Positions 8,680 to 27,433 of a stretch of DNA of 64,000 bases are shown here, piece by piece (the stretch's first letter is position 1; each line of letters begins with the position of its first letter). A program made the position numbers and the translations under genes. A model generated the notes under the pieces. That model saw nothing but the letters and a program-made list of their open reading frames with translations, made no database searches and was not told where the DNA came from. The DNA is from Candidatus Omnitrophota bacterium (GTDB lineage Bacteria > Omnitrophota > Gorgyraeia > Pluralincolimonadales > Pluralincolimonadaceae): the NCBI GenBank assembly GCA_003141835.1, contig PLNR01000006.1, positions 142,558-206,557 of the forward strand. The letters run 5' to 3'.

Positions 8680-9192
8680 TTATGGATGGAATCCTATCTT
8701 CTTCTTTGGCTTTTCTTCCGGCGGCGCCATTAATTCATCAATAAGCTGGTAAATCGTTGTAATATGTCGACCATGTTCTCCAAGTATTTTACCATGTTCT
8801 TTTACCTGTTGCGCAAGTTCTTTATTTTCAGCTAACATTTCTCTTAACCTAACAAATACTCGCATTATTATGATATTTACCCGAATTGCTCTATCACTAT
8901 TTAAAACGCTCGAGAGCATAGCAACCCCTTGCTCTGTAAAAGCATTGAAATTGTATCTTCTGCCGCCCCATCTTGAGGTCGCAAATTGCGACCTCAAGTT
9001 CGTAACTTCTTGTCTTGTAAGAAGAAACATGAAATCAGCTGGAAATCTCTTTAGATTCCTTTTAACTTGTTCATTCGGCCTCTTCGTTGATACTCCGTAC
9101 AGCTGTGCAAGATCTTTATCAAACATCACCTTTTTACCCCTGATAATAAAGATCTTCTGCCGCACAACATCCTGCTCAACCAGATTTGACAT
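8680..9192 (-). CDS. ORF6N-domain DNA-binding protein (antirepressor-related)
   Basis: N-terminal IRGKKVMFDKDLAQLYGVSTKRPNEQVKRNLKRFPADFMF...RWGGRRYNFNAFTEQGVAMLSSVL matches the ORF6N/KilA-N-like family. RBS AAGGAGGG 6 nt upstream. Confidence 0.6.
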   Translation of the reverse strand: MSNLVEQDVVRQKIFIIRGKKVMFDKDLAQLYGVSTKRPNEQVKRNLKRFPADFMFLLTRQEVTNLRSQFATSRWGGRRYNFNAFTEQGVAMLSSVLNSDRAIRVNIIIMRVFVRLREMLAENKELAQQVKEHGKILGEHGRHITTIYQLIDELMAPPEEKPKKKIGFHP

Positions 9193-10070: not shown

Positions 10071-10421
10071 TCACCTCCCCCATGCTATACCGGTGCAAAC
10101 AAAATCACGCAATCTTATATTCTCTTTTACAGGCACAGCCTCAAGTTTAATAGTAAAACCGACATAACGCAAGACCTTTTCCAGCGTCTCCATACTGCTG
10201 AATTCACCATTCTCGATCTTCGATATATGTTGTTGGGTAACACTGATCTTCTTCGCCAGTTGTCCCTGCGTGAGTTTGTGGTCGATGCGGTAGCGGATGA
10301 TGGGTATAACAATCTTTAATTTTTGCTGGCTTATCTCCCACCGCTTCCTGAAATCCGGATTTTTCTTCAGCTCCTCGATATGCTCATTAACACTCATTCC
10401 TAAATGAATATTTCTTTTCAT
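10071..10421 (-). CDS. HTH XRE-family antitoxin (HigA-like)
   Basis: LTQGQLAKKISVTQQHISKIENGE helix-turn-helix. Overlaps the upstream toxin gene by 4 nt. Confidence 0.65.
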   Translation of the reverse strand: MKRNIHLGMSVNEHIEELKKNPDFRKRWEISQQKLKIVIPIIRYRIDHKLTQGQLAKKISVTQQHISKIENGEFSSMETLEKVLRYVGFTIKLEAVPVKENIRLRDFVCTGIAWGR

Positions 10422-10816
10422 ATTCCCTCCCTTTGGCTACTAATAGATATCTTACGTCTTTGTCTGGCCAATGAAATTTCTTTAAGTGGCATTTTTGCGC
10501 TCTTCTTGACAAACGCGTTTGTCATAATGGCTCTGTTCTCCCAAAAGAAATATAATATTCTGATTGTGCCAGCTTCGCTTTGAAATCTTAATTCGAATAT
10601 ATCATCGCCGATATATTTTGAATACGGTTGTTTTAACTCCCTTCCTAATTCTTCGAGCAATCTTTGAATATAAGCAAATTTATCCTGTGTTTTTGATTCA
10701 AACGACTCTATGAATTCCTTTACCGGCATCCTTCCTGAACTTAAACTGTAATAGAAACAGTTAAATCTTCCCACTCTCGCCTCCTTAACTTTACAACCAT
10801 TTAGTTGTATTGTCAA
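10418..10816 (-). CDS. RelE/ParE-superfamily toxin (HigB / Gp49-like). True start possibly the internal Met (MPVKEF...).
   Basis: IFELRFQSEAGTIRILYFFWENRAIMTNAFVKKSAKMPLKEISLARQR matches addiction-module killer proteins. It sits upstream of the XRE antitoxin. Confidence 0.6.
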   Translation of the reverse strand: MTIQLNGCKVKEARVGRFNCFYYSLSSGRMPVKEFIESFESKTQDKFAYIQRLLEELGRELKQPYSKYIGDDIFELRFQSEAGTIRILYFFWENRAIMTNAFVKKSAKMPLKEISLARQRRKISISSQREGI

Positions 10817-10908
10817 TACGTCTTTTTACTGCCCTTATTGTAATAGACGTATAAAGAAGGCATTTTCTTTCAAAATTATTTTTATAAGGGCGTGGATGGA
10901 GGACTGCC

Positions 10909-12120
10909 CTAAACTTGGTATTCTTCGCCGTCAGTTAGGATTTTGACGTTCTGGAATAGTTTGGGATATCTCTCGGCTTCAAAGGTATGGATGGGGATAA
11001 GGACGCGGGGATTAAGGGCCTTGGCGAAGGCCTGGAGGTCCTCGATGATAGCGTGGCCGCTGGTATGTACCGGCTCGATTATCAGACCCTCGCGCTCACA
11101 ATATGCTTTGAATTCATCGGTCAGATATCCCTGCCACATCGAATAAATTATCTTGGCGCCGCGCGCGCCATCGAGTTCCTTCACCGCGATCGGGAAAAAG
11201 GAATTATCGCGCGCCAGCATAAGTATCCTGTTTTTCATGCGGGCGATCTCGAATAGATCGATCTTTCGCTTGTTATAGACAAAAAGCAAATCCCTGTACC
11301 CGGCGCTTTCTAAACATTTGGCATGGTACCCAAGGAATTTTACCCTGATATTCTTCCAATTAAACTGCGGTATATTTTTAGACACCTTTCTCAGCTTATC
11401 CAATATAAACGCGGTATAAAGGTCTATCACGAATACCGAATCCGTCTTCAAGCATGCCCTGTAAGCCGAAACGATCCTGTCGATGTTCTGGGACGAGGCA
11501 AATAGAAAGGTGATCTCCTTCCTCTCTTCCAATATCCGGGCGATCCGCGCCTCGACCTCTTTCTCGTCTTTATACTCCTGCGCGCCCCTGCCGAGCATCG
11601 AGCCCTCCATTATCAGGCAATCAATATCCTTCGGCGGGGCTTCTAACATCATCTTGAATAACGCGCTCTTCCTCCCGTGGCCGCGGAAATCGCCGGAATA
11701 GAATATCCTCTTGCCTTCGCCCTCCACAAGGAAAGTAAGCGCGTCAAACGCGGAATGGTCGACCTGATACGGCGTCACCGTCATGTCCCCAACGACAAAA
11801 GGCTTTTTTGGCTTTACGATGCGCGTGTTTATCTTGCCGGTCTTGTTCGGCGTGAATATATTGGACACCTCTATCAGCTCTTTTGCCCCCTGGCTCATAT
11901 AAACGGGGATATCCGGATGGATGTGGCCCAGCAAGCCATAATGGTCCATGTGGGAATGTGAGATAAGTACGGCATCCGGGAGGATTTTGGGATAGGATGG
12001 CTTTTCGATCTCTTCGTCCAGCGGCTGGCCGAAATCTATCAGGAGCCGCGTTTTATCTGTCTTTAACTCGACGCAGCTACCGCCGATTTCCTGAGTGCCG
12101 CGGTGGATTGTTACTTGCAC
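10909..12120 (-). CDS. MBL-fold metallo-hydrolase (possible nuclease)
   Basis: HSHMDHYG metallo-beta-lactamase motif near the N-terminus, 403 aa. Start overlaps the upstream gene by 1 nt. Confidence 0.65.
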   Translation of the reverse strand: MQVTIHRGTQEIGGSCVELKTDKTRLLIDFGQPLDEEIEKPSYPKILPDAVLISHSHMDHYGLLGHIHPDIPVYMSQGAKELIEVSNIFTPNKTGKINTRIVKPKKPFVVGDMTVTPYQVDHSAFDALTFLVEGEGKRIFYSGDFRGHGRKSALFKMMLEAPPKDIDCLIMEGSMLGRGAQEYKDEKEVEARIARILEERKEITFLFASSQNIDRIVSAYRACLKTDSVFVIDLYTAFILDKLRKVSKNIPQFNWKNIRVKFLGYHAKCLESAGYRDLLFVYNKRKIDLFEIARMKNRILMLARDNSFFPIAVKELDGARGAKIIYSMWQGYLTDEFKAYCEREGLIIEPVHTSGHAIIEDLQAFAKALNPRVLIPIHTFEAERYPKLFQNVKILTDGEEYQV

Positions 12121-12965
12121 TATTTAATCCTGCTAAAATCAATCTCGTTTTTTATATGTAATATTTTTATCTCGGGATGCTTTTTCTTAAGCCCATTTAT
12201 GCTCTGCTCAGCCAAACCTGAATACCCCCCAACGACAACAATTCCCAAAACACCTTCGACAATATCGATCTCCAAACCGTCTGGCAACAGCCCGAGTCCC
12301 CGCTTCTGTAATGCATTCTTTACGTAACACTCCTTATACTGCTGAAAGTTCTTTGTAATACGCTCAATATAGCCGCTAAGTTGCGTAAAGACCTCTTCCT
12401 TCAATTCCAAATTATTTCCCAGCTTAACTTCCAAGACGCAGAACTGATATTTGCCTGCATTATTCCTCTTGAGCGCAAGAAGATCCATCTTAGTAGAGCT
12501 GTCCCGGTCAACAACCTGCCGGTCGATTATTATCAAATCATCTCTGTTAGAATTGTCGGTCAAGATCATTTGCTCGAAAACGATCTCCTCTTGAAACTGA
12601 ACTTCTTTAACCTTTTGTCCCATCAATAATAAATTTCTCGTGCTAAAAAAGGAATGCAATTTCTTATGCCCAACGGTGAATAAATAGTACTCCTTCTCCA
12701 TAGCGTTCTTGAACCGTTTAACCGCAGGGCCCATACCTTCTACAAATTTACGATGGATTCTGATTTCGTACAGATTTTTTGACTTACGGTAGGATATTTT
12801 CCCAAGGCTGTTGCCTTTATAATAAAGATTTAGGTAATCGTCGCGTATCTGCAAACCATACTCAAAACCAGATTGCTTGATCTTATTAATCAAGAAGTCG
12901 AAATCCCTCTTCACGGCCTCGTATGTTTCCTGAGATAGATATCGGCTTATAACTTTATTTTTCAT
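12120..12965 (-). CDS. hypothetical protein with PD-(D/E)XK-like signature (candidate nuclease)
   Basis: 281 aa, AT-rich. MDLLAL...CVLEVK fits a D-x(n)-E-x-K pattern. Unrelated to anything I recognise. Confidence 0.4.
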   Translation of the reverse strand: MKNKVISRYLSQETYEAVKRDFDFLINKIKQSGFEYGLQIRDDYLNLYYKGNSLGKISYRKSKNLYEIRIHRKFVEGMGPAVKRFKNAMEKEYYLFTVGHKKLHSFFSTRNLLLMGQKVKEVQFQEEIVFEQMILTDNSNRDDLIIIDRQVVDRDSSTKMDLLALKRNNAGKYQFCVLEVKLGNNLELKEEVFTQLSGYIERITKNFQQYKECYVKNALQKRGLGLLPDGLEIDIVEGVLGIVVVGGYSGLAEQSINGLKKKHPEIKILHIKNEIDFSRIK

Positions 12966-12992
12966 TTTAGGTTTCCTGCGAACCTTTTATTT

Positions 12993-13053
12993 GGGGACAC
13001 TCTGCAGCCTGTCCCTTTTTGACACGCCCCTATTACCTACTATTACCTATTAC
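12993..13053. repeat. island repeat unit U1 (GGGGACAC...TGTCCCTTTTTGACACGCCCC plus TATTACC tandem)
   Basis: Shares the core GGGGMSKTKTCAAAAAGGGACA (reverse orientation) with U2, U3 and the helicase-gene element. It sits between the Dam-like MTase stop and the 281-aa gene start. Confidence 0.5.
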
Positions 13054-13101
13054 TTCTTCGTGATTTTGCCTTTTTTACGCCCATAAAATAGCAACCTTAG
13101 G

Positions 13102-13989
13102 TTATACAAATAATGTAAAACAATGTTTATTTTTGATTTTGGGTAAGATACAATTCTCGCTGGATATTAATAATTCCTTACCGATGCTAGCTTTATGAAT
13201 AGAATATCTTATTTTAAGATTATTCCGCTGAACGCCTTTGTAAATATTCTTAATAAATGCTATGTTATCATATGAAAGAACCCATTTTAGATCGCTATTT
13301 TCTTTCAAATAATTGCTTAGTCTTTCGTGTTCTTGGGCCTCCATGTAATATTTATATAAATCTCTTCCCTTTTGATAATACGGAGGATCCAAATATATTA
13401 AATAATTTGATTTATCAGGACTTTTTAACGCTAAGTAAGTTTTTAAAAAATCGACTCCATCCTTATTAAATAGCTCAATTTTACTTTTATATTTTGATAT
13501 CAGTTCGATTCTTTTAATTAAATTTATTTTATTAAACCTTGCGTCAATCTTCCATTCGCCATCCTGCTTCATGCCACCTACTGGACCTGACGATAGTATT
13601 CCAGAACGGTTGCAACGATTTAGATAGAAGCTAGCAAACCCAACATCAATATCTGAACCATGTTTTATAAATTCTTTGTCCTTCAATAAATCTCTTTGTA
13701 TTTTCCACTCGCTAATTTTAACAGGTGTAGAAATTACGCGCGCAATAAAACCATCTGTTTGATTTAAAACTGCTTTCCAGAATTTATATATTCGTTCATC
13801 CAAATCGTTAAGTACGATTTTGTCAACGAACCCTTTCGTCAACAAATTTAAAGCTGCGCCAGCTCCTCCAGCAAAAGGTTCAATATACGCTACGTTGACT
13901 AATTCATTGCTTTGGATCACTTTATTTAAATATTTCCACAAAGCTGTTTTTCCGCCGGGGTATCTCAAGGGACTTATATGATTATCCAT
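13102..13989 (-). CDS. DNA adenine methyltransferase, Dam-like (alpha class)
   Basis: EPFAGGAGAALN (motif I) near the N-terminus and YLDPPYY (motif IV, DPPY) in the C-terminal half. AT-rich. Confidence 0.8.
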   Translation of the reverse strand: MDNHISPLRYPGGKTALWKYLNKVIQSNELVNVAYIEPFAGGAGAALNLLTKGFVDKIVLNDLDERIYKFWKAVLNQTDGFIARVISTPVKISEWKIQRDLLKDKEFIKHGSDIDVGFASFYLNRCNRSGILSSGPVGGMKQDGEWKIDARFNKINLIKRIELISKYKSKIELFNKDGVDFLKTYLALKSPDKSNYLIYLDPPYYQKGRDLYKYYMEAQEHERLSNYLKENSDLKWVLSYDNIAFIKNIYKGVQRNNLKIRYSIHKASIGKELLISSENCILPKIKNKHCFTLFV

Positions 13990-15374
13990 TATTCGTTCTT
14001 TTTTAGAACATGTCTCAAATATTCAGATAATTTTTTCCACTTATCTGAAAGCACTGTTCTGTCAGGTATATAACTAGCGTTATGTACGAAAGAGTTCAAA
14101 TCGTCCAATATTGGTTCTTTTCCTTTAAAATCGACATATTTTTTAAGCGCTTTCTTAATTTGCGGATCCATCGCTATATCATTTTCACTAAGCCAAAGTA
14201 GCATTCCCTTAAGTGAGGGCCACGTATCTGGTAAACTTTTCCCGCTTTTTAACTTAGTTTCATCGCGGTTTTTATATTTTTTTAATTCCCCGCTTCTCTC
14301 CATGTAAATATACGTGCCCAATTCTACTAATAGTCTAAAAGTTACCGCATGGGCATTTGGATATGTTTTAGGGTTGAGCCCGTGCAGTTCTCTAAATATA
14401 TCTTTGATTCGCTCATTATTGATTTCACATATAATCGCATCTGGGATAATCGACTTAAACTGAAGTGTTTTAGGTATTTGGTTTTTTATGGCGGATTTTT
14501 TGAAATCTCCAGGATTTGAAAGATAATCTTCTATTGCATCTGCTGTACTTAAATTTCTTGAATTGACTTCTTTATTGGCAATATCCTCAACAATCTGTTT
14601 TAACTTTATATCAGTCTTTTTCTCATTTTCTATAAACTCAATATTTCCATTATCGTTGTAAGTAACTTTTAGATAATCTTTACCTGGCTTGCTTTGAACA
14701 ACTCTATCTAGGGTAGTAAATTCAAATTTTTCTTTTTCGTTTCCGTTTTCTAGACTTAATAATTGATCTTTAATTTTTTTCGAAATAGGTAGTTTGTGTG
14801 CTCTCTGAATGAAGTTGTAACTTACAATTAATTTTTTTATTTTATTAGCTTTGACACCAACGGATAGCGATAAATTATTGATTGTTTCTCCATCTCTAAT
14901 ACGCCGGTAATAAAATATGGCTTGATTTATCGGCAGCCACTTTTTAATAGGTATTTCTGTATGTCTACCTGCAATAATATAATCAGCATCTTTCCTGCTT
15001 GGAGCAAGTACCCCGTTTATTTTTTTAATACTACCTGATTTAGCATTTTTTGCAATTGCCTTAAATCGTTTTTGGTACTTATCAGGTGCGATGCTGGGAT
15101 TCAAAAGAAGCTTGCATGCTGCAAGCCGCCTATTTCCTTCTAATACATATAGTTTTCCTTCTATATCACAAACTATTATAACCTCTGTTGGTAAAAAACC
15201 TCTTTCTGCTATTCTTAACGATAGATCTATAATATTCTCATATTTAATTAGCTCTTCAAGAATGTTTTCTTCTGATAACTCTTCTAAATTAGCAAATCGC
15301 GGGTTTTCAGGGTCTAGTAACAAATTCTCTACATCATACTTATCTATCTTCCAATCCGAATAATTTGTTGGCAT
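13989..15374 (-). CDS. ParB N-terminal (ParB/Srx nuclease-like) domain protein, 461 aa
   Basis: LYVLEGNRRLAACKLLLN matches the ParB GxRR box. Long lysine-rich C-terminal region of unknown function. Its stop overlaps the MTase start (13989). Confidence 0.6.
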   Translation of the reverse strand: MPTNYSDWKIDKYDVENLLLDPENPRFANLEELSEENILEELIKYENIIDLSLRIAERGFLPTEVIIVCDIEGKLYVLEGNRRLAACKLLLNPSIAPDKYQKRFKAIAKNAKSGSIKKINGVLAPSRKDADYIIAGRHTEIPIKKWLPINQAIFYYRRIRDGETINNLSLSVGVKANKIKKLIVSYNFIQRAHKLPISKKIKDQLLSLENGNEKEKFEFTTLDRVVQSKPGKDYLKVTYNDNGNIEFIENEKKTDIKLKQIVEDIANKEVNSRNLSTADAIEDYLSNPGDFKKSAIKNQIPKTLQFKSIIPDAIICEINNERIKDIFRELHGLNPKTYPNAHAVTFRLLVELGTYIYMERSGELKKYKNRDETKLKSGKSLPDTWPSLKGMLLWLSENDIAMDPQIKKALKKYVDFKGKEPILDDLNSFVHNASYIPDRTVLSDKWKKLSEYLRHVLKKNE

Positions 15375-15427
15375 TTAAACCTCCTCAAGTAATAAAATAT
15401 CTTCCGCCCTTATTTGAAATTTAACTA

Positions 15428-15500
15428 GGGGGACGCATACCTTATGACACTGTGCAACCTGTCCCTTTTTGAAGAGTCCTCTATTCTACTTCTATTATTT
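15428..15500. repeat. island repeat unit U2
   Basis: GACACTGTGCAACCTGTCCCTTTTTGAAGAG...CTATTCTACTTCTATTATTT is collinear with U1. Confidence 0.45.
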
Positions 15501-15514
15501 GCTATGGGAACTTC

Positions 15515-15575
15515 GGGGACGTGTCATTTTGGGGCACCCTGCAATCTATTTCTTTTTGACACGTCACTAATATTT
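15515..15575. repeat. island repeat unit U3 (bounded by 9-bp inverted repeat GACGTGTCA / TGACACGTC)
   Basis: GGGGACGTGTCATTTTGGGGCACCCTGCAATCTATTTCTTTTTGACACGTCAC. Confidence 0.45.
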
Positions 15576-15619
15576 TGAATTGATCTGCTCAGAGCTTATC
15601 TAGATTGGAGTATTAGTAA

Positions 15620-16561
15620 TCAAATGCCTTTCAAAAGCTTAGAAAATCCTGCGGTATTAACGAAATAATTGCTCTTATTCTTTTTAAGATATTTATATAT
15701 ATCTTTTTTTGCTTTTGACATCTTATTGTCTGTTGATGCTTCAATTAGTTCGTTAAACATAATTCCATCCAAAAATGCTACATACGAAACATTTTTGTCT
15801 GTGTATTTCAATAAATCCACTATTTCTACAATTGCACCGTATTGCCCTCCACCGCCACCTTTTTTATGTTTATGCTCAACAACATACATATTAGGCCCTT
15901 TTTGAATATAACAATCTGGCATCTTACCTTGTTTTGATTTACTCCATTCAAATTTAATATTACGTTTGTTACAAATGTCTTTAAAATATTTTTTCTCTCC
16001 TTTATCAGGCAATAAATAAAACGAATCCTTTTTGATATCATCGCTTCTTTTATATCTTTTGAAACCTTCCCGCTCAACAAGCATAATAATCTTATTTGCT
16101 CCTGTTGAGCCCCCTCTTTTATGCGAATAATTGTCAGATAGTACTTGTAAAACAATATTAGAATATCCATGAGATGAATACATCGAATGCCTATCCTTAA
16201 TATATTTAATTAACAATTCCCGTAGTAATTTTTTTCTTTCTTGTTCTTTTTCGGCACGCAGTACAGAATATGGCATATCCCATACCATTAAATATTGCGA
16301 GAATGCCGTATAATTCATATGATGTATTTTGAATAATATTGAATCAATCTCCCTGATAATTTCATCATCCTGCTTCTTGGTGAGCTTACCATCCAAAGTA
16401 TGGTACGTTGTTATTAGATCAATTAACCTTTCATTGCTATTAATAATCTTGTTTTTATCTTTTGCGTTTTTCGTTATTACAATAATTTCTTTTTTATTAG
16501 CATCATCAAAAATCTGCTCTCTATTCTTTAACGAGTATTCGAATAAGAGGATGTTGTCCAT
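15620..16561 (-). CDS. hypothetical protein; candidate restriction endonuclease partner of the adjacent MTase
   Basis: 313 aa, AT-rich, no recognisable motifs. Overlaps the upstream NPPY methyltransferase gene by 34 nt. Confidence 0.35.
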   Translation of the reverse strand: MDNILLFEYSLKNREQIFDDANKKEIIVITKNAKDKNKIINSNERLIDLITTYHTLDGKLTKKQDDEIIREIDSILFKIHHMNYTAFSQYLMVWDMPYSVLRAEKEQERKKLLRELLIKYIKDRHSMYSSHGYSNIVLQVLSDNYSHKRGGSTGANKIIMLVEREGFKRYKRSDDIKKDSFYLLPDKGEKKYFKDICNKRNIKFEWSKSKQGKMPDCYIQKGPNMYVVEHKHKKGGGGGQYGAIVEIVDLLKYTDKNVSYVAFLDGIMFNELIEASTDNKMSKAKKDIYKYLKKNKSNYFVNTAGFSKLLKGI

Positions 16562-17613
16562 AATAATTCTTCTCCATAAATATTATTATACGCATTTTCG
16601 AGTATGGCCCTTGCAGTTTCATAATCTAGGCGCCTTCTTCTGCAACCATTTTTCATATTTCCTTTAAAGGGCGACAAAAGCACATCATTCGTTTTGTCTC
16701 TATAATCTGTAAGAATGTTATTGCATTTCTCCAAAAACAATTCTAGCTTATCATGCTTTAATTTATCCAATTTAATTATTGTTATTAGCCTAGAGCTTAT
16801 CTTAATCCCCTTTAAATCATAATCAAGTTCTTCCTTTTTCATGAATTTTATCATGGATTTAGGATTTGTTGTGTCGACCGCTCTTAAGGCAATATTTCCA
16901 CTAGTATCATTAAAAAATATCCTAAGGTATTTTGCGGGCCTTAATCTCAATTTTTCATAATAGTCCAGATTATTTAAATATTTATCATTTTTATACACCT
17001 TGATTTCCGAATATTCTTTTGCTCTGCCATCAAAGCAAAGAACACATACCGGCGTCTCTGTATCATCAAAACAATTTTCTTCTATTATAGTAATCGAATT
17101 TAATCGATATTTATGCTTAAAATTACTATTTATGAAAGTCTCTGGAACAATTGCTACAACGTATTCTTGCGCTTGCAGCATTTTTTCAAGTGCAATTAAA
17201 TATAAATCGCCATATTCAGAACTAATAAAATAATTTTCAGTACTATCATAGATACCTTTTCTTTTAGCACTATAATTACTTAGGTAGGGCGGATTTGTAA
17301 TTATTATGGCATTTTTTCTTGTGGGAATTTTTAATAAACTATCATTCACTGGGAAATTCTTTTTAGAGTCTATGTCCAAACCAAACGCTTTGGTAATTCC
17401 GAAATTATCGGAGAGTTTTAACAAATCGCCGTCTCCAGCATATGGATCATAAATCTCACTACAACCGCTGGATATCACGAATTCTTTAATATGAGTTTTT
17501 AGCCATTTATCTTTTTTAGTAAAATATTGTCCTAATATTTTTTGGTTCATATAATGCCTCTGACAATATTGCGTTTTTTCGTCTCTAACATGGACTTTTA
17601 TCTCGCTTGTCAT
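16528..17613 (-). CDS. N6-adenine (or N4-cytosine) DNA methyltransferase, gamma-class order (motif I then NPPY)
   Basis: DPYAGDGDLL (SAM-binding) followed about 40 residues later by IIITNPPY. Confidence 0.7.
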   Translation of the reverse strand: MTSEIKVHVRDEKTQYCQRHYMNQKILGQYFTKKDKWLKTHIKEFVISSGCSEIYDPYAGDGDLLKLSDNFGITKAFGLDIDSKKNFPVNDSLLKIPTRKNAIIITNPPYLSNYSAKRKGIYDSTENYFISSEYGDLYLIALEKMLQAQEYVVAIVPETFINSNFKHKYRLNSITIIEENCFDDTETPVCVLCFDGRAKEYSEIKVYKNDKYLNNLDYYEKLRLRPAKYLRIFFNDTSGNIALRAVDTTNPKSMIKFMKKEELDYDLKGIKISSRLITIIKLDKLKHDKLELFLEKCNNILTDYRDKTNDVLLSPFKGNMKNGCRRRRLDYETARAILENAYNNIYGEELLWTTSSYSNTR

Positions 17614-17661
17614 GTGTATTTTAACACCTCCCTATTCATGCGTCAATGCAAGGTTTCTTTG

Positions 17662-17710
17662 CTTCCTTACCTATATAGACGCAAGTTAGGAAGATTTTCT
17701 TTCAACTATT
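17662..17710. repeat. about 50-bp hairpin repeat, copy B (partner of 9200-9250)
   Basis: CTTCCTTACCTATATAGACGCAAGTTAGGAAGATTTTCTTTCAACTATT. Identical 18-bp tail and TATAGACGC loop. Confidence 0.6.
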
Positions 17711-17764
17711 TTTTAGAGTTTCCCCTATAACTCCTCACCTTTCATCGGCGTTGCACTCGGGTCC

Positions 17765-17992
17765 CTAATAATTAAAAATATCTTTAATAGCAAAATTATC
17801 TTCCGGCTTTAGCGCGCGAAGGGCATTCAGAATCTTATGTTGGATATTAAGGGTTAATCGCCTTCCCTTGCGCCCCTTTTGCACCATCTTATGCGACAAC
17901 TGCTCAGTGGAAATCTTAACAAGGTCAGAGTTTGAAAAACCTAGCCGCACCATGATCCTGTCAAGCGGCTGGATGCCTAATTCTTCCTTCAT
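17765..17992 (-). CDS. small hypothetical protein (75 aa), basic, possibly DNA-binding
   Basis: Its ATG overlaps the TGA of the upstream NYN gene (ATGA). Flanked by a roughly 30-bp direct repeat. Confidence 0.35.
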   Translation of the reverse strand: MKEELGIQPLDRIMVRLGFSNSDLVKISTEQLSHKMVQKGRKGRRLTLNIQHKILNALRALKPEDNFAIKDIFNY

Positions 17993-18360
17993 ATTTTACT
18001 CCAAAACTCCTCGCATTTCATCGGCGTTGCACGCGCATCCTTCGCATAAAAATACAGCGAGCGGTCGGAGGAGACGACACGCAGGTTGCGGCGCTGGCGC
18101 GGCGGGATCTGGTCGATGTGTTTCTTTATGTAAGAGTCGGCGTTCCGGGCCGCGACGATATGCAGTTTCGCCGTGCTCCTGTTCGGTATATCGAGATATT
18201 CATTCTTGCTGTCGAATACAAGGGTGATGGGGTCGGCGTGGGTCTCCTGGAACTTCTCCAGGATAGCGATCAGGTGCATGGCGCCGGCCAGGGCGTCGTC
18301 ATGATCTATCCCTGAGCCTTCGTGGCGGACCATGTTCCAACCGTCTATAAGTATAGGCAT
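17989..18360 (-). CDS. NYN/PIN-like (YacP-like) domain protein
   Basis: N-terminal ILIDGWNMV and acidic residues are typical of YacP/NYN nucleases. Confidence 0.5.
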   Translation of the reverse strand: MPILIDGWNMVRHEGSGIDHDDALAGAMHLIAILEKFQETHADPITLVFDSKNEYLDIPNRSTAKLHIVAARNADSYIKKHIDQIPPRQRRNLRVVSSDRSLYFYAKDARATPMKCEEFWSKI

Positions 18361-18373
18361 GGCTCCCTAGCAC

Positions 18374-19516
18374 CTAAACCTTTTCGTGGCTAAATTGGCG
18401 CAGATAATCACTGTACATAAACTTGCGATTGCGCTCTTTTCCGGTTATTTCATATAATATGTCTGCCTTAACAAACTTTTCTATCAACTGAAGGATATTC
18501 GCTTTAGAGGATATTCCGGTAATCCGCGAGGCAATCCCTGAATCTACTATAGGGGTTGAATATAGTTTGTTTAACAGTTTTAAGGCTGTTGCGGAATTTC
18601 TGCCCATGCCGGAAACCTTCCTGATGTGCTCCTCCCTTAATTTTGTGATCTTTTGGGCAGTTATCACGGCTTCCTCAGAAACTTCGCGTACGCCTACAAG
18701 AAAATATTTTAGCCAATCTTCTATACCTTTATTAAACCTATATCCGTTTAATTTATCGTAATAATTTGTACGGTGTTTTTTAAAATACTCCGAAATATAC
18801 AAAAGTGGCCGGGACAGCACCTGTTCTTTGTAAAGATAAAAAGTAATCAAGAGTCTCCCCATCCTTCCGTTACCGTCAAGGAACGGATGGATGGTTTCAA
18901 ATTGAGCGTGTATAATGCCGGCTTTTATTAAAGGCGGAAGTTTCGTGGTTTCATCGTGCAAGAACTTTTCCAGATCAGACAAAGATTCATGCATTTGGTG
19001 AGCGGGCGGAGGAACAAAAAAAGCTGTTTCTATAGTAGGGCCTCCTATCCAATTTTGGGAAGTCCTGAATTCCCCCGGATTTCTGTGCTGCCCACGCACT
19101 CCTTTAAGCAAGGCGGAATGCATTTCTCTTATCAAACGCCAGGAGAGAGGAAAGGTCTTTAGCCTTTCTATGCCATGATCCATTGCGGTTATGTAGTTTT
19201 TTATCTCATCGACATCCGAAGGGGAATCCTTATCCTTTAGTTTCGCCTCCGCTTTTATGTAATCGATGAATGTCGCCTGAGTACCTTCTATCTGGCTTGA
19301 TAACGCGGCTTCTTTCGTAACGTACATGTAGATAAAGAAATTAACGTCGGGGACAAGCTGGTCTATGGCATTGAGACTACCTATAGCGCGATCTGCCTTT
19401 GAGAGAAGCATGATTAAATTGTCATCCCAGTTTATGAGATGCTCAGGTGGAAATTTTGCCGGTATAAACGCCTTGTAACCTGTAGGTTGCTGTTGATAAA
19501 AACCTATTTTTCCCAT
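18374..19516 (-). CDS. Fic family protein (probable AMPylase) with C-terminal winged-helix
   Basis: Canonical Fic motif HPFLDGNGRMGR within a 380-aa ORF. Confidence 0.85.
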   Translation of the reverse strand: MGKIGFYQQQPTGYKAFIPAKFPPEHLINWDDNLIMLLSKADRAIGSLNAIDQLVPDVNFFIYMYVTKEAALSSQIEGTQATFIDYIKAEAKLKDKDSPSDVDEIKNYITAMDHGIERLKTFPLSWRLIREMHSALLKGVRGQHRNPGEFRTSQNWIGGPTIETAFFVPPPAHQMHESLSDLEKFLHDETTKLPPLIKAGIIHAQFETIHPFLDGNGRMGRLLITFYLYKEQVLSRPLLYISEYFKKHRTNYYDKLNGYRFNKGIEDWLKYFLVGVREVSEEAVITAQKITKLREEHIRKVSGMGRNSATALKLLNKLYSTPIVDSGIASRITGISSKANILQLIEKFVKADILYEITGKERNRKFMYSDYLRQFSHEKV

Positions 19517-19688
19517 TTCATCCTCCCAGAACTACTGTTTTGGTTAGTTCTGGATAAGTAGTATATCCGATACTTACGCAATATGCAAGTTTTAATTTCA
19601 ATGATTCCAACGTGTTAGAGTAGCTCAATAATTAGTTCTGGTTAATGCCATTATCCAGAACTTGATATTTTCTAAGTTCTGGCTACAG

Positions 19689-22600
19689 TTACCCCCAGCA
19701 GATATCGTAAAAATCGCATTTATTGTTGCCCTGGCCGCATTTGCCGGGTTTCTCGTCGATCTCCGGCAGTTTGGCGAAGTCGAGCTTCCTGATGCGGCGG
19801 CTAACGTCCTTTATGAGCGACTCGAGCTCGGCGACCATATCCTCGGTCAGCTCGACCTTCTTCTTGACGAATTCGCCTTCCTTGAGGTCGTGCTTTATGA
19901 CCGTCTCTTTAGCCGGGTCGAGGAAGACGAGCACCCCCTCCTTTACCTTGCGGCCCTGTGATTCCTTCTTGTCCCTGTCGAAGAGGAGTTTATACGCGAT
20001 GAGCTGGCGCAGGTACCCCTCGAACTCATCACTTGATACCGGTATCTTTTTCGCGAGAGAATTATTGATCCCTTTGACATGTCTATCCGGTTCACCCGTT
20101 TTATAATCTATCACACGAACGGCGGCGGTGCCCGCGGGTTCGGTTTTATCATATTTTCCGGTAAATTTCAGGTCGTCATCGAGCATGACCATCAGGTTTT
20201 TCTCGAGGCCGAGCGGCTTTATCGGCGCGCGTGATTCTTCCTTGAACCAGGCCTTGAACGTCTCGACCTGGCGCAGGCAGGCGGTCTTTATCGCCGCTTC
20301 CGGGGCTTCGTGGCTTAATTCCCTGGTGAACGCCTCCTTGAAGAACGCGAAATCCGGGAATTTGCCGGTCTTCATGAATTTATCATAGGTATTTTCCAGC
20401 GCCTTGTGGGTGCAGTTACCGAAGACGAGCGGCTGCTTCTTGCCCGACGGCAGCATCAGGGCGTTATCATAGAGATATTTGCGCGGGCAATTTATATAAT
20501 TGTTGAGCGATGTGGGGTTGAGCGAGATGCCGGCGACGAGGTCTTTCAATATCTTGTCGGTGCCGATGAACGGGTCTTCTGCGTCGGTTATCTCGAGCGC
20601 GGCTTTGAGCAGGTCCTCTTCTTTATTTGCGGAGGCCTCCCCATCGGCCACGCCCGTAAGATACGAGCTCGGGATCGCGCTCTCGGTCGGGCTGGCGGTG
20701 TAGATGAGGTTCGCCTTGGCGCGCGTCGAGGCGACGTAGAACAGGCGCGTCTCGTCGTAATAATCGAGTTGCTTTAAGATATCCTTGTCGGGCGGGATCT
20801 CCTTCGACTTGTAGACCTCGGGCGGGAGCGGGATCGAGACGCCCTGCGGCCGCTTCGGCCAGCGCTTCTTTTCGAGGCAGAACGGGATGAATACCGTGTG
20901 GAATTCGAGGCCTTTCGAGCCGTGGGCCGTGTAGATGCGCACGCCTTCCTGCGTGGCCGTGACGAGCTCGCCCTTCAGGGACATGCCGTGGGCCTTGCGG
21001 GTCTCGAGCTCATCGATGAATTCCTTGAGCGTGATGCCCGGGCGCGCGATGTCGGATTCCTTGACCATGTTGACGAATGACGTTAGCGCGCGCAGGTCGC
21101 GGATGCGCAGGAGATCATTATCATCATATTTATCCAAGATGAACTTCAAAACCCCTGCATCTTTGATAAATTGCATCAAAATTGCATGCACTGGTCTACT
21201 TTCGGCTTCAAAAAGCAAAGCAGAAATCGAAGCTAAATTTGGGGACGTTTCAAAAAGGGACACTTCACCCACTGAAGTATTAGCAGGGGTGAAATGTAAC
21301 CCTTTTTGAAACGTCCCCAAGCGCATTAGCTCGCTGAACATCGAAATCGTCGGGGCTTCGCCCTTCTTGCGCTGGTCATATTTTTTCACCCGGACTTCGG
21401 CGATGAAGCGCAGGACGTCGCTCATCGGGATGTGCATGTAATCGGCGGTCAAAATGCGGTAGAGATAGGCGTCTTTCTGCTCTATATCGATGTCGGGCGT
21501 GTGCGCGAAATAGAGCACGTCGAGCATCTGGCGGACGCGCTTCTCGCCGGCGATGTCCTCCTTGCCGTCGGTTGCGTACGGGATACCGGCGCGCAGGAAA
21601 GTGTCGACTATTTTGAGGATATCGTCGCGCTGGCGCACGAGGACGGCGACTTCATCAAGCGGGACCTCCTCCTTCTTCGCGATCTCCTTTATGCGGCGCG
21701 CGATAAAGAGCAACTCCTCGGTCTCGGTCGTGAATTCGTCATATTCGATGGTCTTTTTCTTGAAATCTGTCTCCGGCGCGAGTTCTTTGGCGTGGACGCG
21801 CTCTTTAACCGGAAGGTTATTTATTATGCGGCCTGCGAGCGAGATTATCTCTTTTGTCGAGCGGTAGTTCTTTTCGAGCGGGATCTCTTTTAATTTCGGA
21901 AATCTCTTCTTTAGTTCGCGGAAATTCGCTACCGACGCCCCCTGGAACCTAAAAATAGATTGGTCGTCGTCCCCTACGCAGCAAATATTCGTGCCGCCTA
22001 GCTCGAATAATAAGTCCATCTGCGCGCCGTTGGTGTCCTGGAACTCATCAACCATGATGTAGGTGTACTGCTTCTGGAGGGCGGATTTGAGCTCCGGTTC
22101 ATTGCGGATCGCCTCGACCGCGAAAAGTATCATATCATCGTAATCGTAGCGGCCCCGGTCATCGAAAAGTGCCTTATTTTTGCCCGCTTTGTACTCTTCA
22201 TACAGCTTATATACGGTGGCGAGGGCCTTGAGACGTTCTATGTGCTTTTCTTCAATGTAGGCGCCGTCAGGCTCGGTTTTTTCTATTATCTCAGCGAACT
22301 GCGCCGGCGAAACACCTTCGCGCTTAAGCTCGGTTATCCGCTGGCTTATCTCGCGCTCAAAAGCGTACGGCGCGCGGAACGGCCGGATCTTATCGATGCC
22401 GTCAGTATTATCCAAAATATATTCGAGGAGCTTTATCTGCTCGATATCGGTTATCTGGACGCGTTCCTGGATGTATTCGGCCGCCTCTTCGGACTCCAAC
22501 ACGACAGAATTCGCGAAACTGTGGAATGTCGCCGTTTCAATATTGTAAGCGGCGGCTCCAAGGAGTTTCACGAGGCGCTCTTTCATCGCCTTCGCGGCGG

Positions 22601-22775
22601 CATTCGTGTATGTTAGGATGAGGATATTCTCGGGGCGGGCCTTCTTTGCCTTAATTATGTTCGCCGCGCGGACGGAAAGCAGCTCGGTCTTGCCTGTTCC
22701 GGGTCCGGCTAGGACTAAAACGGGGCCATCGAGGGTCTCGGCGGCTAATTTTTGCTTGGTATTCAGATTGATCAT
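19689..22775 (-). CDS. UvrD/PcrA-like SF1 helicase fused to a C-terminal PD-(D/E)XK Cas4/AddB-like nuclease with Cys cluster
   Basis: Walker A LAGPGTGKT and helicase motifs in the N-terminal 650 aa. C-terminal segment VIDYKTGEPDR...QLIAYKLL plus Cys residues (NCPRKY...CGQGNNKCDFYDIC). Start taken at MINLN (ATG 22775). The track ORF extends to 22823. Confidence 0.8.
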   Translation of the reverse strand: MINLNTKQKLAAETLDGPVLVLAGPGTGKTELLSVRAANIIKAKKARPENILILTYTNAAAKAMKERLVKLLGAAAYNIETATFHSFANSVVLESEEAAEYIQERVQITDIEQIKLLEYILDNTDGIDKIRPFRAPYAFEREISQRITELKREGVSPAQFAEIIEKTEPDGAYIEEKHIERLKALATVYKLYEEYKAGKNKALFDDRGRYDYDDMILFAVEAIRNEPELKSALQKQYTYIMVDEFQDTNGAQMDLLFELGGTNICCVGDDDQSIFRFQGASVANFRELKKRFPKLKEIPLEKNYRSTKEIISLAGRIINNLPVKERVHAKELAPETDFKKKTIEYDEFTTETEELLFIARRIKEIAKKEEVPLDEVAVLVRQRDDILKIVDTFLRAGIPYATDGKEDIAGEKRVRQMLDVLYFAHTPDIDIEQKDAYLYRILTADYMHIPMSDVLRFIAEVRVKKYDQRKKGEAPTISMFSELMRLGTFQKGLHFTPANTSVGEVSLFETSPNLASISALLFEAESRPVHAILMQFIKDAGVLKFILDKYDDNDLLRIRDLRALTSFVNMVKESDIARPGITLKEFIDELETRKAHGMSLKGELVTATQEGVRIYTAHGSKGLEFHTVFIPFCLEKKRWPKRPQGVSIPLPPEVYKSKEIPPDKDILKQLDYYDETRLFYVASTRAKANLIYTASPTESAIPSSYLTGVADGEASANKEEDLLKAALEITDAEDPFIGTDKILKDLVAGISLNPTSLNNYINCPRKYLYDNALMLPSGKKQPLVFGNCTHKALENTYDKFMKTGKFPDFAFFKEAFTRELSHEAPEAAIKTACLRQVETFKAWFKEESRAPIKPLGLEKNLMVMLDDDLKFTGKYDKTEPAGTAAVRVIDYKTGEPDRHVKGINNSLAKKIPVSSDEFEGYLRQLIAYKLLFDRDKKESQGRKVKEGVLVFLDPAKETVIKHDLKEGEFVKKKVELTEDMVAELESLIKDVSRRIRKLDFAKLPEIDEKPGKCGQGNNKCDFYDICWG
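21241..21319. mobile_element. MITE-like structured element inside the helicase-nuclease CDS (perfect 19-bp terminal inverted repeats GGGGACGTTTCAAAAAGGG / CCCTTTTTGAAACGTCCCC plus nested hairpin)
   Basis: It is embedded in an AT-rich stretch of about 200 bp (21125-21330) within an otherwise GC-rich gene. The reading frame is maintained. Its core is related to the island repeats U1-U3. Confidence 0.45.
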
Positions 22776-22822
22776 ATTTATGCTATAATTGGATGGTATA
22801 ATTATACCCCAAGGAGGACGCA
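22776..22822. promoter_or_regulatory. divergent promoter region (two TATAAT boxes, RBS AAGGAGGA for the plus-strand gene)
   Basis: TATAAT at 22784-22789 and 22797-22802. AAGGAGGA 5 nt upstream of ATG 22823. Confidence 0.35.
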
Positions 22823-23155
22823 ATGAAAACTGCTATTATTATGTTATCTGTTCTCTCTTTTACCCTTTTCGTGAGCCCGGCAACGGTCAAGGCCGAAGGC
22901 ACCAGCGGCACGCTCGCCGCGCAGGTAGATACGGTCACTGTGGCACAGACCGAGGGCGAGGATTCCACCGTTTCAGTTGTAGATGAATCCGGCGTCACGA
23001 TACTCTTTTATGTGACAGCCGCAACCGTCATCTCCGGCCCGATAGGCGAGCCGATAAGCCTCGGCAATATCAACCAGAACGACCCGGTCGAGATAGAATA
23101 CGATAATCTCGAGGGCGGGGTCGGGCTGGCGAAGTCAATAAAACTAACAGAGTAA
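22823..23155 (+). CDS. small secreted protein, paralog 1 of 3 (possible OB-fold periplasmic protein)
   Basis: Signal peptide. Shares the C-terminal pattern of hydrophobic and Gly positions with 25322-25636 and 25662-26000. Confidence 0.5.
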   Translation: MKTAIIMLSVLSFTLFVSPATVKAEGTSGTLAAQVDTVTVAQTEGEDSTVSVVDESGVTILFYVTAATVISGPIGEPISLGNINQNDPVEIEYDNLEGGVGLAKSIKLTE

Positions 23156-23160
23156 ATATA

Positions 23161-23207
23161 GGGTGTCCCCCACTGAGGTGGGACCTTGCCCCAATGGGAC
23201 GTCCCCC
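23161..23207. repeat. REP-like element copy 2 (split by a 19-bp internal insert)
   Basis: GGGTGTCCCCC / ACTGAGGTGGGACCTTGCC / CCAATGGGACGTCCCCC. Confidence 0.6.
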
Positions 23208-23215
23208 AGGAAAAA

Positions 23216-23896
23216 ATGCGCATACTTGTAGTCGAAGACGAAAAAAAGATAGCAAATTTCATAAAACGCGGCCTGAAGGAAGAGGGCTACGCTGTCGACG
23301 CGGCTGAAGACGGCGAGCAGGGATATTTTATGGCCACAACGCAGGATTACGACCTCATCGTCCTCGACCTGATGCTGCCGAAGATGGATGGCCTCACCCT
23401 TTGCAGGAAGTTGCACGAAATGGGGTGTCCCCCAATGGGACGTCCCCCAGTATTGATACTCACGGCCAAGGACACGGTAAAAGACAAGGTCTCCGGCCTC
23501 GACTCCGGCGCGGACGATTACATCACCAAGCCGTTCGCTTTCGAGGAGTTCCTGGCGCGGGTGCGGGCGCTTTTGCGCAAACGCGAAGGCAGTGCGTCGA
23601 CGAAACTCACGGCCGGCGAACTCACGCTCGACCTCGTCACGCACAAGGTATCGCGCGGCGGCAAAGAGATCGAGCTTACGGCCAAGGAATACGCGCTCCT
23701 TGAATATTTCATGCGCAACGCCGGCACGTGCGTCACCAGGACGATGATATCCGAGCACGTCTGGGACATGAATTTCGATAGTTTTACAAACGTCATAGAC
23801 GTCTATGTGAACTATCTACGAAAAAAACTGGACAACGGCCCCGGCAAAAAACTCATCCAGACCGTCCGCGGCAGGGGTTATATCCTCAAAGGTTAA
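23216..23896 (+). CDS. OmpR-family response regulator
   Basis: Receiver domain (VVEDE, D..LDLMLP, LTAKD) plus winged-helix effector (LTAKEYALLEYF...RTVRGRGY). Confidence 0.85.
   Translation: MRILVVEDEKKIANFIKRGLKEEGYAVDAAEDGEQGYFMATTQDYDLIVLDLMLPKMDGLTLCRKLHEMGCPPMGRPPVLILTAKDTVKDKVSGLDSGADDYITKPFAFEEFLARVRALLRKREGSASTKLTAGELTLDLVTHKVSRGGKEIELTAKEYALLEYFMRNAGTCVTRTMISEHVWDMNFDSFTNVIDVYVNYLRKKLDNGPGKKLIQTVRGRGYILKG
23422..23448. repeat. REP-like element copy 3, inside the response-regulator CDS (encodes GCPPMGRPP in frame)
   Basis: GGGGTGTCCCCCAATGGGACGTCCCCC. Confidence 0.7.
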
Positions 23897-26466: not shown

Positions 26467-26493
26467 GGGGTGTCCCCCAATGGGACGTCCCCT
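26467..26493. repeat. REP-like element copy 4 (intergenic)
   Basis: GGGGTGTCCCCCAATGGGACGTCCCC, between the OsmC start and the YhaM-like stop. Confidence 0.7.
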
Positions 26494-27433
26494 AGGTTTT
26501 TTTGAGAAGATATTTGCGGCCTTTGAGGCTTACATACGAGGACCAGACCTTGTCTCCGCCGGACTGCTGGACGATGATCTCCTTGACCGCGTTCGCCTGC
26601 GAGACGAGCTCGTCGGCCTGGTAGACGATCGTCGCCTCGAGCGTCTTCGGGAGTATCGGCGACTGCTGTTCGTATTCGCCGTGGTGGCTTAAGATGATAT
26701 GCTTGAGGCGCAGGGCGAGGTCCTTCGGGAAGTTCTTGATATTTTTTATCTTCTCGGAGACCATCTCGTAGCCGAGCGTCAGGTGGCCGATCAGCCCGCC
26801 GTCGACCGTGTATTCGAAGGTGCTGATGTCGAGCTCGACGGTCTTGCCGATGTCGTGGGCGAACGCGCCGATCATCACGATGTCGCGGTCGGCGTCGGGA
26901 TAAAGGTCGCAGACCACGCCGCTGATGCGCATCACCTCGTACGTGTGCTCCATCAGCCCGCCGATGTAGGCGTTGTGCCAATTCTGGGCGCCGGGCGATT
27001 TTTTGAATTTCGCCATCAGTTCGTCATCGGAGAGGAACTCCTTCGCCAGCGCCGCGAGCCATTTTTCGGAGATCCCGTCAAGTGCCTCTTTGATATTCTT
27101 GAATATCTCTTCGGGCTTTTCGACGGAGCGGACGAGCTCCTCGAATTTGTATTCTTTCGGCTCGGCAAGGCGTATCTGGTCGACGCGTATCTGCAGGTCG
27201 CCCTTGAATGAATCGACGCGGCCGTTGACGAAGACCGCTTCGCCTGTCGCGACCATTTCGTCGGCGGCCCCGGCATTCTCCCAGACCTTCGCTTCCATCC
27301 GGCCGGTCTTATCCGAGAGCGTTAATTTAAGGAACGGCTTTCCGCCTTGCGTGAGCGCAAGTTCTTTCTTCTTGAGGAAATACACGTCCTCGATCGTATC
27401 GTTTGTCTTGAGGTTTTTTATGAATTTAGGCAT
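26492..27433 (-). CDS. OB-fold + HD-domain phosphohydrolase (YhaM-like 3'-5' exoribonuclease family)
   Basis: N-terminal OB-fold region then an HD-domain motif (FAHDIGK...H...D). Confidence 0.6.
   Translation of the reverse strand: MPKFIKNLKTNDTIEDVYFLKKKELALTQGGKPFLKLTLSDKTGRMEAKVWENAGAADEMVATGEAVFVNGRVDSFKGDLQIRVDQIRLAEPKEYKFEELVRSVEKPEEIFKNIKEALDGISEKWLAALAKEFLSDDELMAKFKKSPGAQNWHNAYIGGLMEHTYEVMRISGVVCDLYPDADRDIVMIGAFAHDIGKTVELDISTFEYTVDGGLIGHLTLGYEMVSEKIKNIKNFPKDLALRLKHIILSHHGEYEQQSPILPKTLEATIVYQADELVSQANAVKEIIVQQSGGDKVWSSYVSLKGRKYLLKKT

Follow-up and report, generated by a model that had tools for sequence, protein, structure and literature searches.

Does a gene that fuses a helicase to an iron–sulfur (FeS) nuclease, and that lies beside a Fic gene and an NYN gene, belong with them to a defence system, or is it part of the cell's own DNA repair equipment? 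This question is posed by a 64,000-nucleotide stretch from a Candidatus Omnitrophota bacterium (the whole stretch analysed, hereafter the window; contig PLNR01000006.1, assembly GCA_003141835.1). An earlier note, made from the letters alone, had drawn attention to the helicase–nuclease gene and suggested that it and its two neighbours might act together in defence. As set out below, the helicase–nuclease is probably a vertically inherited backbone gene of Omnitrophota encoding a housekeeping repair or recombination enzyme. The Fic gene is a separately acquired SoFic-type cassette, and the Fic–NYN–helicase trio is a positional coincidence, not a system. The gene and its parts are as follows:

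19689..22775, minus strand: helicase–nuclease gene, 1028 aa plus stop codon (open reading frame (ORF) translation, identical public protein P0001, Pfam)
20694..22766, minus strand: superfamily 1A (SF1A) UvrD/PcrA-like helicase core, residues 4-694 (Pfam, NCBIfam, PDB, Foldseek, motifs)
20523..20693, minus strand: linker, residues 695-751, predicted to be flexible (low model confidence, variable alignment)
19698..20522, minus strand: Cas4/AddB/AdnA-type PD-(D/E)XK nuclease domain, residues 752-1026 (Pfam, structure model, Foldseek)
20487..20489, minus strand: Cys763, first predicted [4Fe-4S] ligand, in the motif NCPRKY (alignment)
19698..19739, minus strand: Cys1013, Cys1020 and Cys1026, predicted C-terminal ligand triad, CGQGNNKCDFYDIC (alignment)
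22801..22829, minus strand: promoter-like site TTTTCA-17-TATAAT (consensus scan, 10/12 matches; a consensus match only)

A real gene encoding a UvrD/PcrA-type helicase fused to a Cas4/AddB-type iron–sulfur nuclease was confirmed. An ORF covers 19689..22823 on the minus strand and would yield 1044 aa if counted from a TTG. Translation was nevertheless assigned to the ATG at 22775, giving 1028 aa, because the public protein collection holds an identical 1028-aa protein (P0001), close homologues use the same start Met, and the promoter-like site overlaps the TTG. The coordinates given previously (19689-22775) therefore stand, whereas the accompanying length of 1044 aa was 16 residues too long. 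The promoter-like site falls within the 47-nt gap between this ATG and a divergently oriented gene of 110 aa.

Pfam divides the protein into UvrD-helicase (residues 4-293, E 9e-65), UvrD_C (residues 298-694, E 2e-31) and PDDEXK_1 (residues 752-1026, E 2e-23); a Cas4 match at the C-terminus was sub-threshold (PF01930, 16.9 against a cutoff of 22.7). The helicase motifs are intact, namely GPGTGKT with the Walker A lysine K29 (codon at 22689-22691), DEFQDTNG (motif II being DEFQD), VGDDDQSIFRFQGA, NYRS, TAHGSKGLEF and DETRLFYVASTRA. So are those of the RecB-family nuclease, namely H790/E794, GKYD876, D890-Y-K892 and Q924xxxY928, with H790, E794, D876, D890, K892, Q924 and Y928 as the catalytic residues. 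None of these motifs varies across 20 aligned homologues of 53-92% identity; the linker sequence does.

The cysteines follow the same pattern. Cys763 is invariant in the 20 Omnitrophota homologues and in eight more distant relatives, and C1013, C1020 and C1026 are invariant in the 20. Most family members carry the canonical C-terminal spacing CX2CX5C, and in the window clade a four-residue insert within the triad changes it to CX6CX5C. A four-Cys iron–sulfur cluster that stabilises the nuclease is accordingly predicted. Taken together, motifs and alignment show a single polypeptide comprising an intact PcrA/UvrD-type SF1A motor, a linker and an intact FeS-type PD-(D/E)XK nuclease.

Fold comparisons point in the same direction. 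AlphaFold modelled the nuclease domain with high confidence (predicted local distance difference test (pLDDT) score 91), and the model's top solved Foldseek matches are the AdnA nuclease (best match, 9np6_A, E 1e-7) and AddB, followed by ACE1, Cas4, Dna2 and Exo5; a profile of the domain searched against PDB sequences gave none at E≤1. For the helicase, the best PDB sequence match is PcrA (1pjr, E 1e-51) and the top Foldseek matches are PcrA and UvrD. The full-length model is mediocre (pLDDT 69, predicted template modelling score 0.43; pLDDT below 50 for residues 695-739) and serves domain-level matches only. Pfam, the invariant motifs and the fold matches thus uphold the original description, in which an SF1 helicase is followed at the C-terminus by a RecB-family nuclease bearing Cas4/AddB-like cysteines.

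Which known enzyme does this protein resemble most closely? Scores against the NCBIfam equivalog models for PcrA, UvrD, Rep, RecB, AddA and AddB all lie far below their cutoffs. The best of them, PcrA, reached 267.7 bits (268 when rounded) against 911, and UvrD reached 199 against 1144. Residues 3-695 match PcrA, UvrD and Rep best in both sequence and fold and contain all the motifs; however, the C-terminal region of these enzymes, which measure about 650-750 aa and have no nuclease, is replaced here by 330 aa of linker and nuclease. RecB (TIGR00609) scored 126.6 bits against 696, and no recC or recD lies nearby. The stand-alone FeS nucleases Cas4 and ACE1 share the nuclease fold and the arrangement of Cys ligands, but here the nuclease is fused to a helicase and has no CRISPR or pAgo context; the Cas4 model TIGR00372 gave 23 bits against 65, and no cas genes were found.

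Similar in layout are the two-subunit end-resection enzymes. Like the present protein, mycobacterial AdnAB combines a UvrD-like motor with a C-terminal RecB-type nuclease and has an FeS cluster in the nuclease domain. AdnAB is, however, a heterodimer encoded by a two-gene operon, whereas one gene is present at all loci here. In addition, its FeS nuclease is carried by the subunit whose motor does not drive translocation, whereas an active-looking motor and an FeS nuclease share one chain here. No adnA–adnB pair was found, sequence similarity to AdnB is weak and confined to the helicase region (E 3e-16), and the likeness to AdnA is at the level of fold and limited to the nuclease. In AddAB of Bacillus and Bacteroides, AddB bears the FeS "iron staple" nuclease, and AddA an active motor and nuclease. 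The full-length folds of both align with the helicase–nuclease, and the AddB nuclease (Foldseek TMq 0.58-0.61) has the four-Cys pattern C…CX2CX5C in common with it. Nevertheless, AddAB has a partner gene and none is present here, and the helicase–nuclease is about 150-200 aa shorter. AddA models gave 105.8 bits against 707.65 (TIGR02785) and 103 against 861 (TIGR02784), AddB gave 30.5 against 903.7, and the helicase motifs that are degenerate in AddB are intact here.

These parallels invite the explanation that the protein is one of the two subunits of an AddAB/AdnAB-type complex, the gene for the other lying at another place in the genome. In its favour, architecture and fold parallel AddA, AddB, AdnA, AdnB and RecB, and in known systems an FeS nuclease of this kind belongs to the partner subunit. 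Yet the two genes of AddAB or AdnAB normally sit side by side in an operon, and no partner-sized gene was detected within ±8-10 kb at about 20 loci, nor in the 64-kb window. Neither the window nor the related loci showed a large PD-(D/E)XK or helicase-like neighbour, in agreement with the first reading of the locus, which had reported no adjacent AddB or RecC partner. The AddA, AddB and RecB scores are all far below cutoff, and an active motor and an FeS nuclease already sit on the same chain. A missing partner is consequently improbable.

A better precedent is the UvrD–Cas4-like fusion, described computationally in 2017 as the largest, monophyletic branch of pfam12705 (Hudaiberdiev et al., 2017; PMC5704561). 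Such proteins have an N-terminal UvrD-like SF1 helicase and a C-terminal Cas4-like PDDEXK_1 domain, and they also resemble the present protein in their Cys ligands, length (about 1000 aa) and encoding by a stand-alone gene. The window protein is likewise a single-chain fusion with Cas4-type Cys ligands. The neighbourhoods differ: Type III restriction–modification (R-M) or Dcm/Vsr loci in the published cases, housekeeping contexts in the Omnitrophota clade. Searching 1.84 billion proteins with a profile of the nuclease domain returned 883 cluster representatives at E≤1e-30. Among the best 150 of these, 88 reach 900 aa or more and have the domain C-terminally, and the remainder are shorter, mostly fragments. 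Most of the 88 measure roughly 950-1060 aa (about 900-1350 aa overall), with a Walker A motif in 84 and a C..C tail in 87. Full-length relatives at 26-33% identity come from Bacteroidota and from metagenome-assembled genomes labelled as candidate phyla radiation (CPR), and no AddB-sized neighbour was seen at those examined. Ten nuclease-domain relatives were checked for their taxon and one name was returned, Candidatus Peregrinibacteria; a search for homologues with just the nuclease domain brought up mainly fragments of Omnitrophota genes and did not extend beyond that phylum. Judged by its architecture, the helicase–nuclease is probably a phylum-wide Omnitrophota member of a known but experimentally uncharacterised family.

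Does the gene behave as a housekeeping gene within Omnitrophota? More than 120 full-length homologues (about 1010-1070 aa) with the same Pfam architecture form a smooth gradient from 100% to about 50% identity, and those with an informative taxon label are all Candidatus Omnitrophota except two labelled Dehalococcoidales. Across the phylum, they occupy six or more housekeeping neighbourhoods. In the close relatives (loci L001, L002/L010 and L011; 82-90% identity), a backbone is kept in the order ArsP permease, YhaM-like OB/HD exonuclease, then further on helicase–nuclease and NYN, while the genes past NYN differ. More distant members, examined at 48-57% identity, place the gene in at least five different housekeeping contexts. 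LOG, an HhH-GPD DNA glycosylase and YjbQ precede it in L005 and L009; MetX–MetW lies upstream and YhaM directly downstream in L014, L016 and L021 (at about 11.2-12.5 kb of those three loci). Its neighbours are thyA/HIT/HD and GAF-HD genes in L007 and L017, and SNF-symporter and peptidoglycan-binding genes in L013 and L019.

The composition and divergence of the gene match those of its surroundings. Its GC content is 0.536, compared with 0.53-0.56 for flanking core genes. Its synonymous divergence (dS) is 0.42 from L001 and 1.12 from L002, inside the ranges of the flanking core genes (0.21-0.58 and 0.94-1.33, respectively). Ratios of nonsynonymous to synonymous divergence (dN/dS) of 0.10 (L001) and 0.08 (L002) show that it is under purifying selection. 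The nuclease domain had no match among 50,697 phage records and four weak matches among 72,556 plasmids, and the 64-kb window contains no paralogue of the gene. The gene thus keeps its synteny, has a native composition and diverges in step with its flanks; together with the near-absence from mobile elements, this supports a vertically inherited backbone gene. A place as the sole housekeeping AddA/PcrA orthologue, in a conserved core-genome context, had been set beforehand as the finding that would count against a defence gene. The core-genome part of this is borne out, and the suggestion of the earlier note that the helicase–nuclease serves in defence is not supported by this evidence.

Two accompanying genes bear on function. 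A YhaM-like OB-fold/HD 3'-5' exonuclease gene occupies 26492-27433 of the window, 3.7 kb upstream of the helicase–nuclease. The recurrent YhaM linkage, with the HhH-GPD glycosylase in some lineages, fits a repair role; across several Omnitrophota lineages, the linkage may reflect a functional repair module.

An alternative explanation is that the helicase–nuclease is a stand-alone or ancillary defence effector that degrades invading DNA, possibly aiding neighbouring R-M systems. Its helicase half resembles GajB and helicases associated with defence-associated reverse transcriptases (DRT) in PADLOC, but these matches are limited to the generic UvrD core in the N-terminal half, and no PADLOC model covers the nuclease. 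GajB itself has no nuclease domain, the PDB match to it is marginal (E 2e-6 over about 100 residues), and no match to GajA, its OLD-family ATPase-nuclease partner, was found among the 19 neighbouring ORFs scanned with PADLOC (about 5.2-23.2 kb). Assignment to a named defence system through the GajB and DRT-helicase matches was therefore rejected, and the PADLOC check that had been proposed for this gene yielded no named system.

Several observations do weigh against the housekeeping reading. R-M or defence genes lie just downstream in four related genomes, those of the window clade starting within 0.1-1.7 kb. On a Hymenobacter sp. plasmid (NZ_CP095057.1, L090), a 1065-aa homologue stands between umuDC, which encodes the translesion polymerase V, and BREX-1, so that defence adjacency does occur in the wider family. 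UvrD–Cas4-like genes have been reported as stand-alone or beside Type III R-M or Dcm/Vsr loci, and on those neighbourhoods an ancillary unwinding-and-cleavage role in defence was proposed for them (PMC5704561). A literature search found no experimental characterisation of UvrD–Cas4 fusions, whether biochemical or genetic, and one on DNA repair in Omnitrophota returned nothing specific. The full-length model, at pLDDT 69, is uninformative on how the two domains dock, and the strand that the nuclease would choose is pure conjecture. Nevertheless, only housekeeping genes surround the gene at nine or more of the more distant Omnitrophota loci; identity declines smoothly, with native GC and dS equal to that of the flanks; island cargo turns over while the helicase–nuclease stays put; and the nuclease domain is missing from the phage records and almost so from plasmids. 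A defence effector is thus regarded as unlikely, if somewhat less so than a missing subunit.

What, then, of the Fic and NYN genes? Both adjoin the helicase–nuclease on its downstream side and on the same strand, as the ORF listing and Pfam bear out:

18374..19688, minus strand: Fic cassette, 1.3 kb, context outside the helicase–nuclease (PADLOC, GC, alignment with L001)
18374..19516, minus strand: SoFic-type Fic gene (PADLOC SoFic, Pfam)
17989..18360, minus strand: NYN_YacP gene, 123 aa, context (Pfam)

The Fic protein matches the PADLOC SoFic model PDLC03963 along the entire length (E 2e-117, residues 13-376 of 380), combines Fic_N with a Fic domain bearing the HxFx(D/E)GNGRxxR motif (here HPFLDGNGRMGR, at the active site), and carries the inhibitory SSQIEG (SxxxEG) motif. 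Against the NCBIfam equivalog model it reached 151 bits, short of the cutoff of 550. The GC content of the gene is 0.416, compared with about 0.54 for its flanks. Window and L001 are nearly identical on both sides, as far as the stop codon of the helicase and from the start codon of NYN onwards. Between these points, the 88-nt spacer of L001 (a locus 90% identical) is replaced by the 1.3-kb cassette, an insertion exactly between the two codons that is found in this genome only. No Fic gene was found at this position in L001 or L002/L010; L002 has two unrelated small genes at the same spot. In L011, another SoFic-type gene lies on the far side of NYN. At 25% identity to the window Fic, and on the opposite side, it was evidently acquired independently.

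The NYN gene has a native GC content (0.551), and its identity is 98% to L001 and 85% to both L002 and L011. It adjoins the helicase–nuclease in the closest clade only and is absent beside homologues below about 80% identity. Truncation of NYN by the island was considered and rejected, the length being 123 aa in L001, L002 and L011 as well.

Together these data decide the case of the three-gene defence system. In its favour are the common strand, the short gaps, the SoFic match and the occurrence in L011 of another, divergent SoFic-type gene close to this locus. Against it stand the absence of Fic from the closest relatives and its exact replacement of a spacer, its foreign GC and its own palindrome-rich leader, the independent origin and position of the L011 gene, the lack of NYN beside every more distant homologue, and the listing of SoFic by PADLOC as a single-gene system. 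The three genes do not co-occur as a combination across related loci, the check that the earlier note had called for, and a functional trio is highly implausible, more so than any other explanation considered here. The genes look associated because a hotspot for defence islands lies right beside a conserved repair-type gene; a false lead is thereby removed, and Fic, NYN and the helicase do not make up a new defence system. The 172-nt Fic leader contains two CCAGAACT-N10-AGTTCTGG palindromes and an extra half-site (19526-19685), an operator-like arrangement through which the SoFic-type gene might be autoregulated.

How might the housekeeping enzyme work? UvrD, PcrA, AddA and AdnB translocate 3'→5'. 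By analogy, DNA ends, nicks or gaps would serve as loading sites for the motor, which would move 3'→5' along one strand. The tethered FeS nuclease would digest the single strand exposed by unwinding, most probably the 5' one, and a 3' tail would be left for RecA. In AdnAB, the FeS subdomain of AdnA lies at the fork, and the AdnA nuclease cuts the displaced 5' strand (PMC8789073). The nuclease's closest structural relative in AddAB acts on that strand as well. The resulting role would be minimal AddAB/AdnAB-like resection or UvrD-like repair. The Fic gene and the island past NYN are, on this reading, independent defence cargo that landed in a hotspot beside the helicase–nuclease.

A bolder proposal, offered tentatively and as one that may well fail, is that Omnitrophota, and perhaps the Peregrinibacteria-like CPR bacteria in which the nearest relatives occur, have none of AddAB, RecBCD and AdnAB and depend on this polypeptide to resect double-strand breaks. 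It would be a minimal machine, in which a single active UvrD-type motor powers an AdnA/AddB-type FeS nuclease that acts on the displaced 5' strand. If this is true, the protein would represent a fourth, one-chain class of bacterial end-resection enzyme. Should these small genomes turn out to have no other end-resection enzyme, the protein would be the simplest equivalent known of RecBCD, AddAB and AdnAB, and a convenient model for the coupling of an FeS nuclease to an SF1A motor. A whole candidate phylum, in any case, conserves a one-chain helicase and FeS nuclease that has never been studied biochemically.

The region beyond NYN is of interest in its own right:

10071..17992, minus strand: variable, mostly low-GC defence island between the NYN gene and the SIMPL gene, context (PADLOC, Pfam)

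Most island genes have a GC content of 0.30-0.39, and a metallo-β-lactamase (MBL)/β-CASP gene has 0.50 (the genes measured exclude the toxin–antitoxin pair). In the window, the cargo comprises an Eco57I-like methyltransferase with a 313-aa ORF, PD-Lambda-5 A/B, a 281-aa ORF with the MBL/β-CASP gene, and Gp49/HTH. At the same place, L001 has two methyltransferases and a GmrSD/NsnA-like gene, L011 has Type I M and S subunits and another PD-Lambda-5, and L002 has an AAA_14/DUF4143 ATPase, RadC, HsdR and a HATPase_c protein. The stretch from NYN to SIMPL is a hotspot with genome-specific cargo, and the locus offers a clean example of cargo turnover between close relatives (SoFic, PD-Lambda-5, Type I/II R-M). 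The window contains no tRNA genes and no Rfam families, so that a tRNA-linked integration site does not account for the island.

Some of this cargo deserves separate mention. The PD-Lambda-5 pair is complete and lies in island DNA of 32% GC, with A at 13989..15374 and B, a D12 methyltransferase, at 13102..13989; the PD-Lambda-5 at the same hotspot in L011 is a second, divergent one. The Eco57I-like N6-adenine methyltransferase gene (16528..17613) overlaps the 313-aa ORF (15620..16561), which has no family match and may encode a novel restriction endonuclease partner. The 281-aa ORF, with weak PADLOC PDC-S18/S11 matches, abuts the MBL/β-CASP-like hydrolase gene (10909-12965), the stop and start codons overlapping at 12120; the two could form a two-gene defence candidate. 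A Gp49 (HigB-like)/HTH toxin–antitoxin pair marks the island edge (10071-10816), and beyond the conserved SIMPL gene an ORF6N-domain protein (8680-9192) matches the PADLOC candidate PDC-S05.

Elsewhere in the window, a roughly 28-nt element, ctgGGGGACGTCCCATTGGGGGACACCC, occurs in four copies (1422-1439, 23188-23205, 23429-23446 and 26474-26491), compared with 0.09 expected by chance. Three are intergenic, and one falls within the gene of an OmpR-type response regulator (23186..23896), its translation there being …MGCPPMGRPP…, part of a loop. The element could be a repetitive extragenic palindromic (REP)-like repeat or a binding site. Finally, a DUF2207-like membrane protein (29025-30758) ends in 16 glycines followed by Trp.

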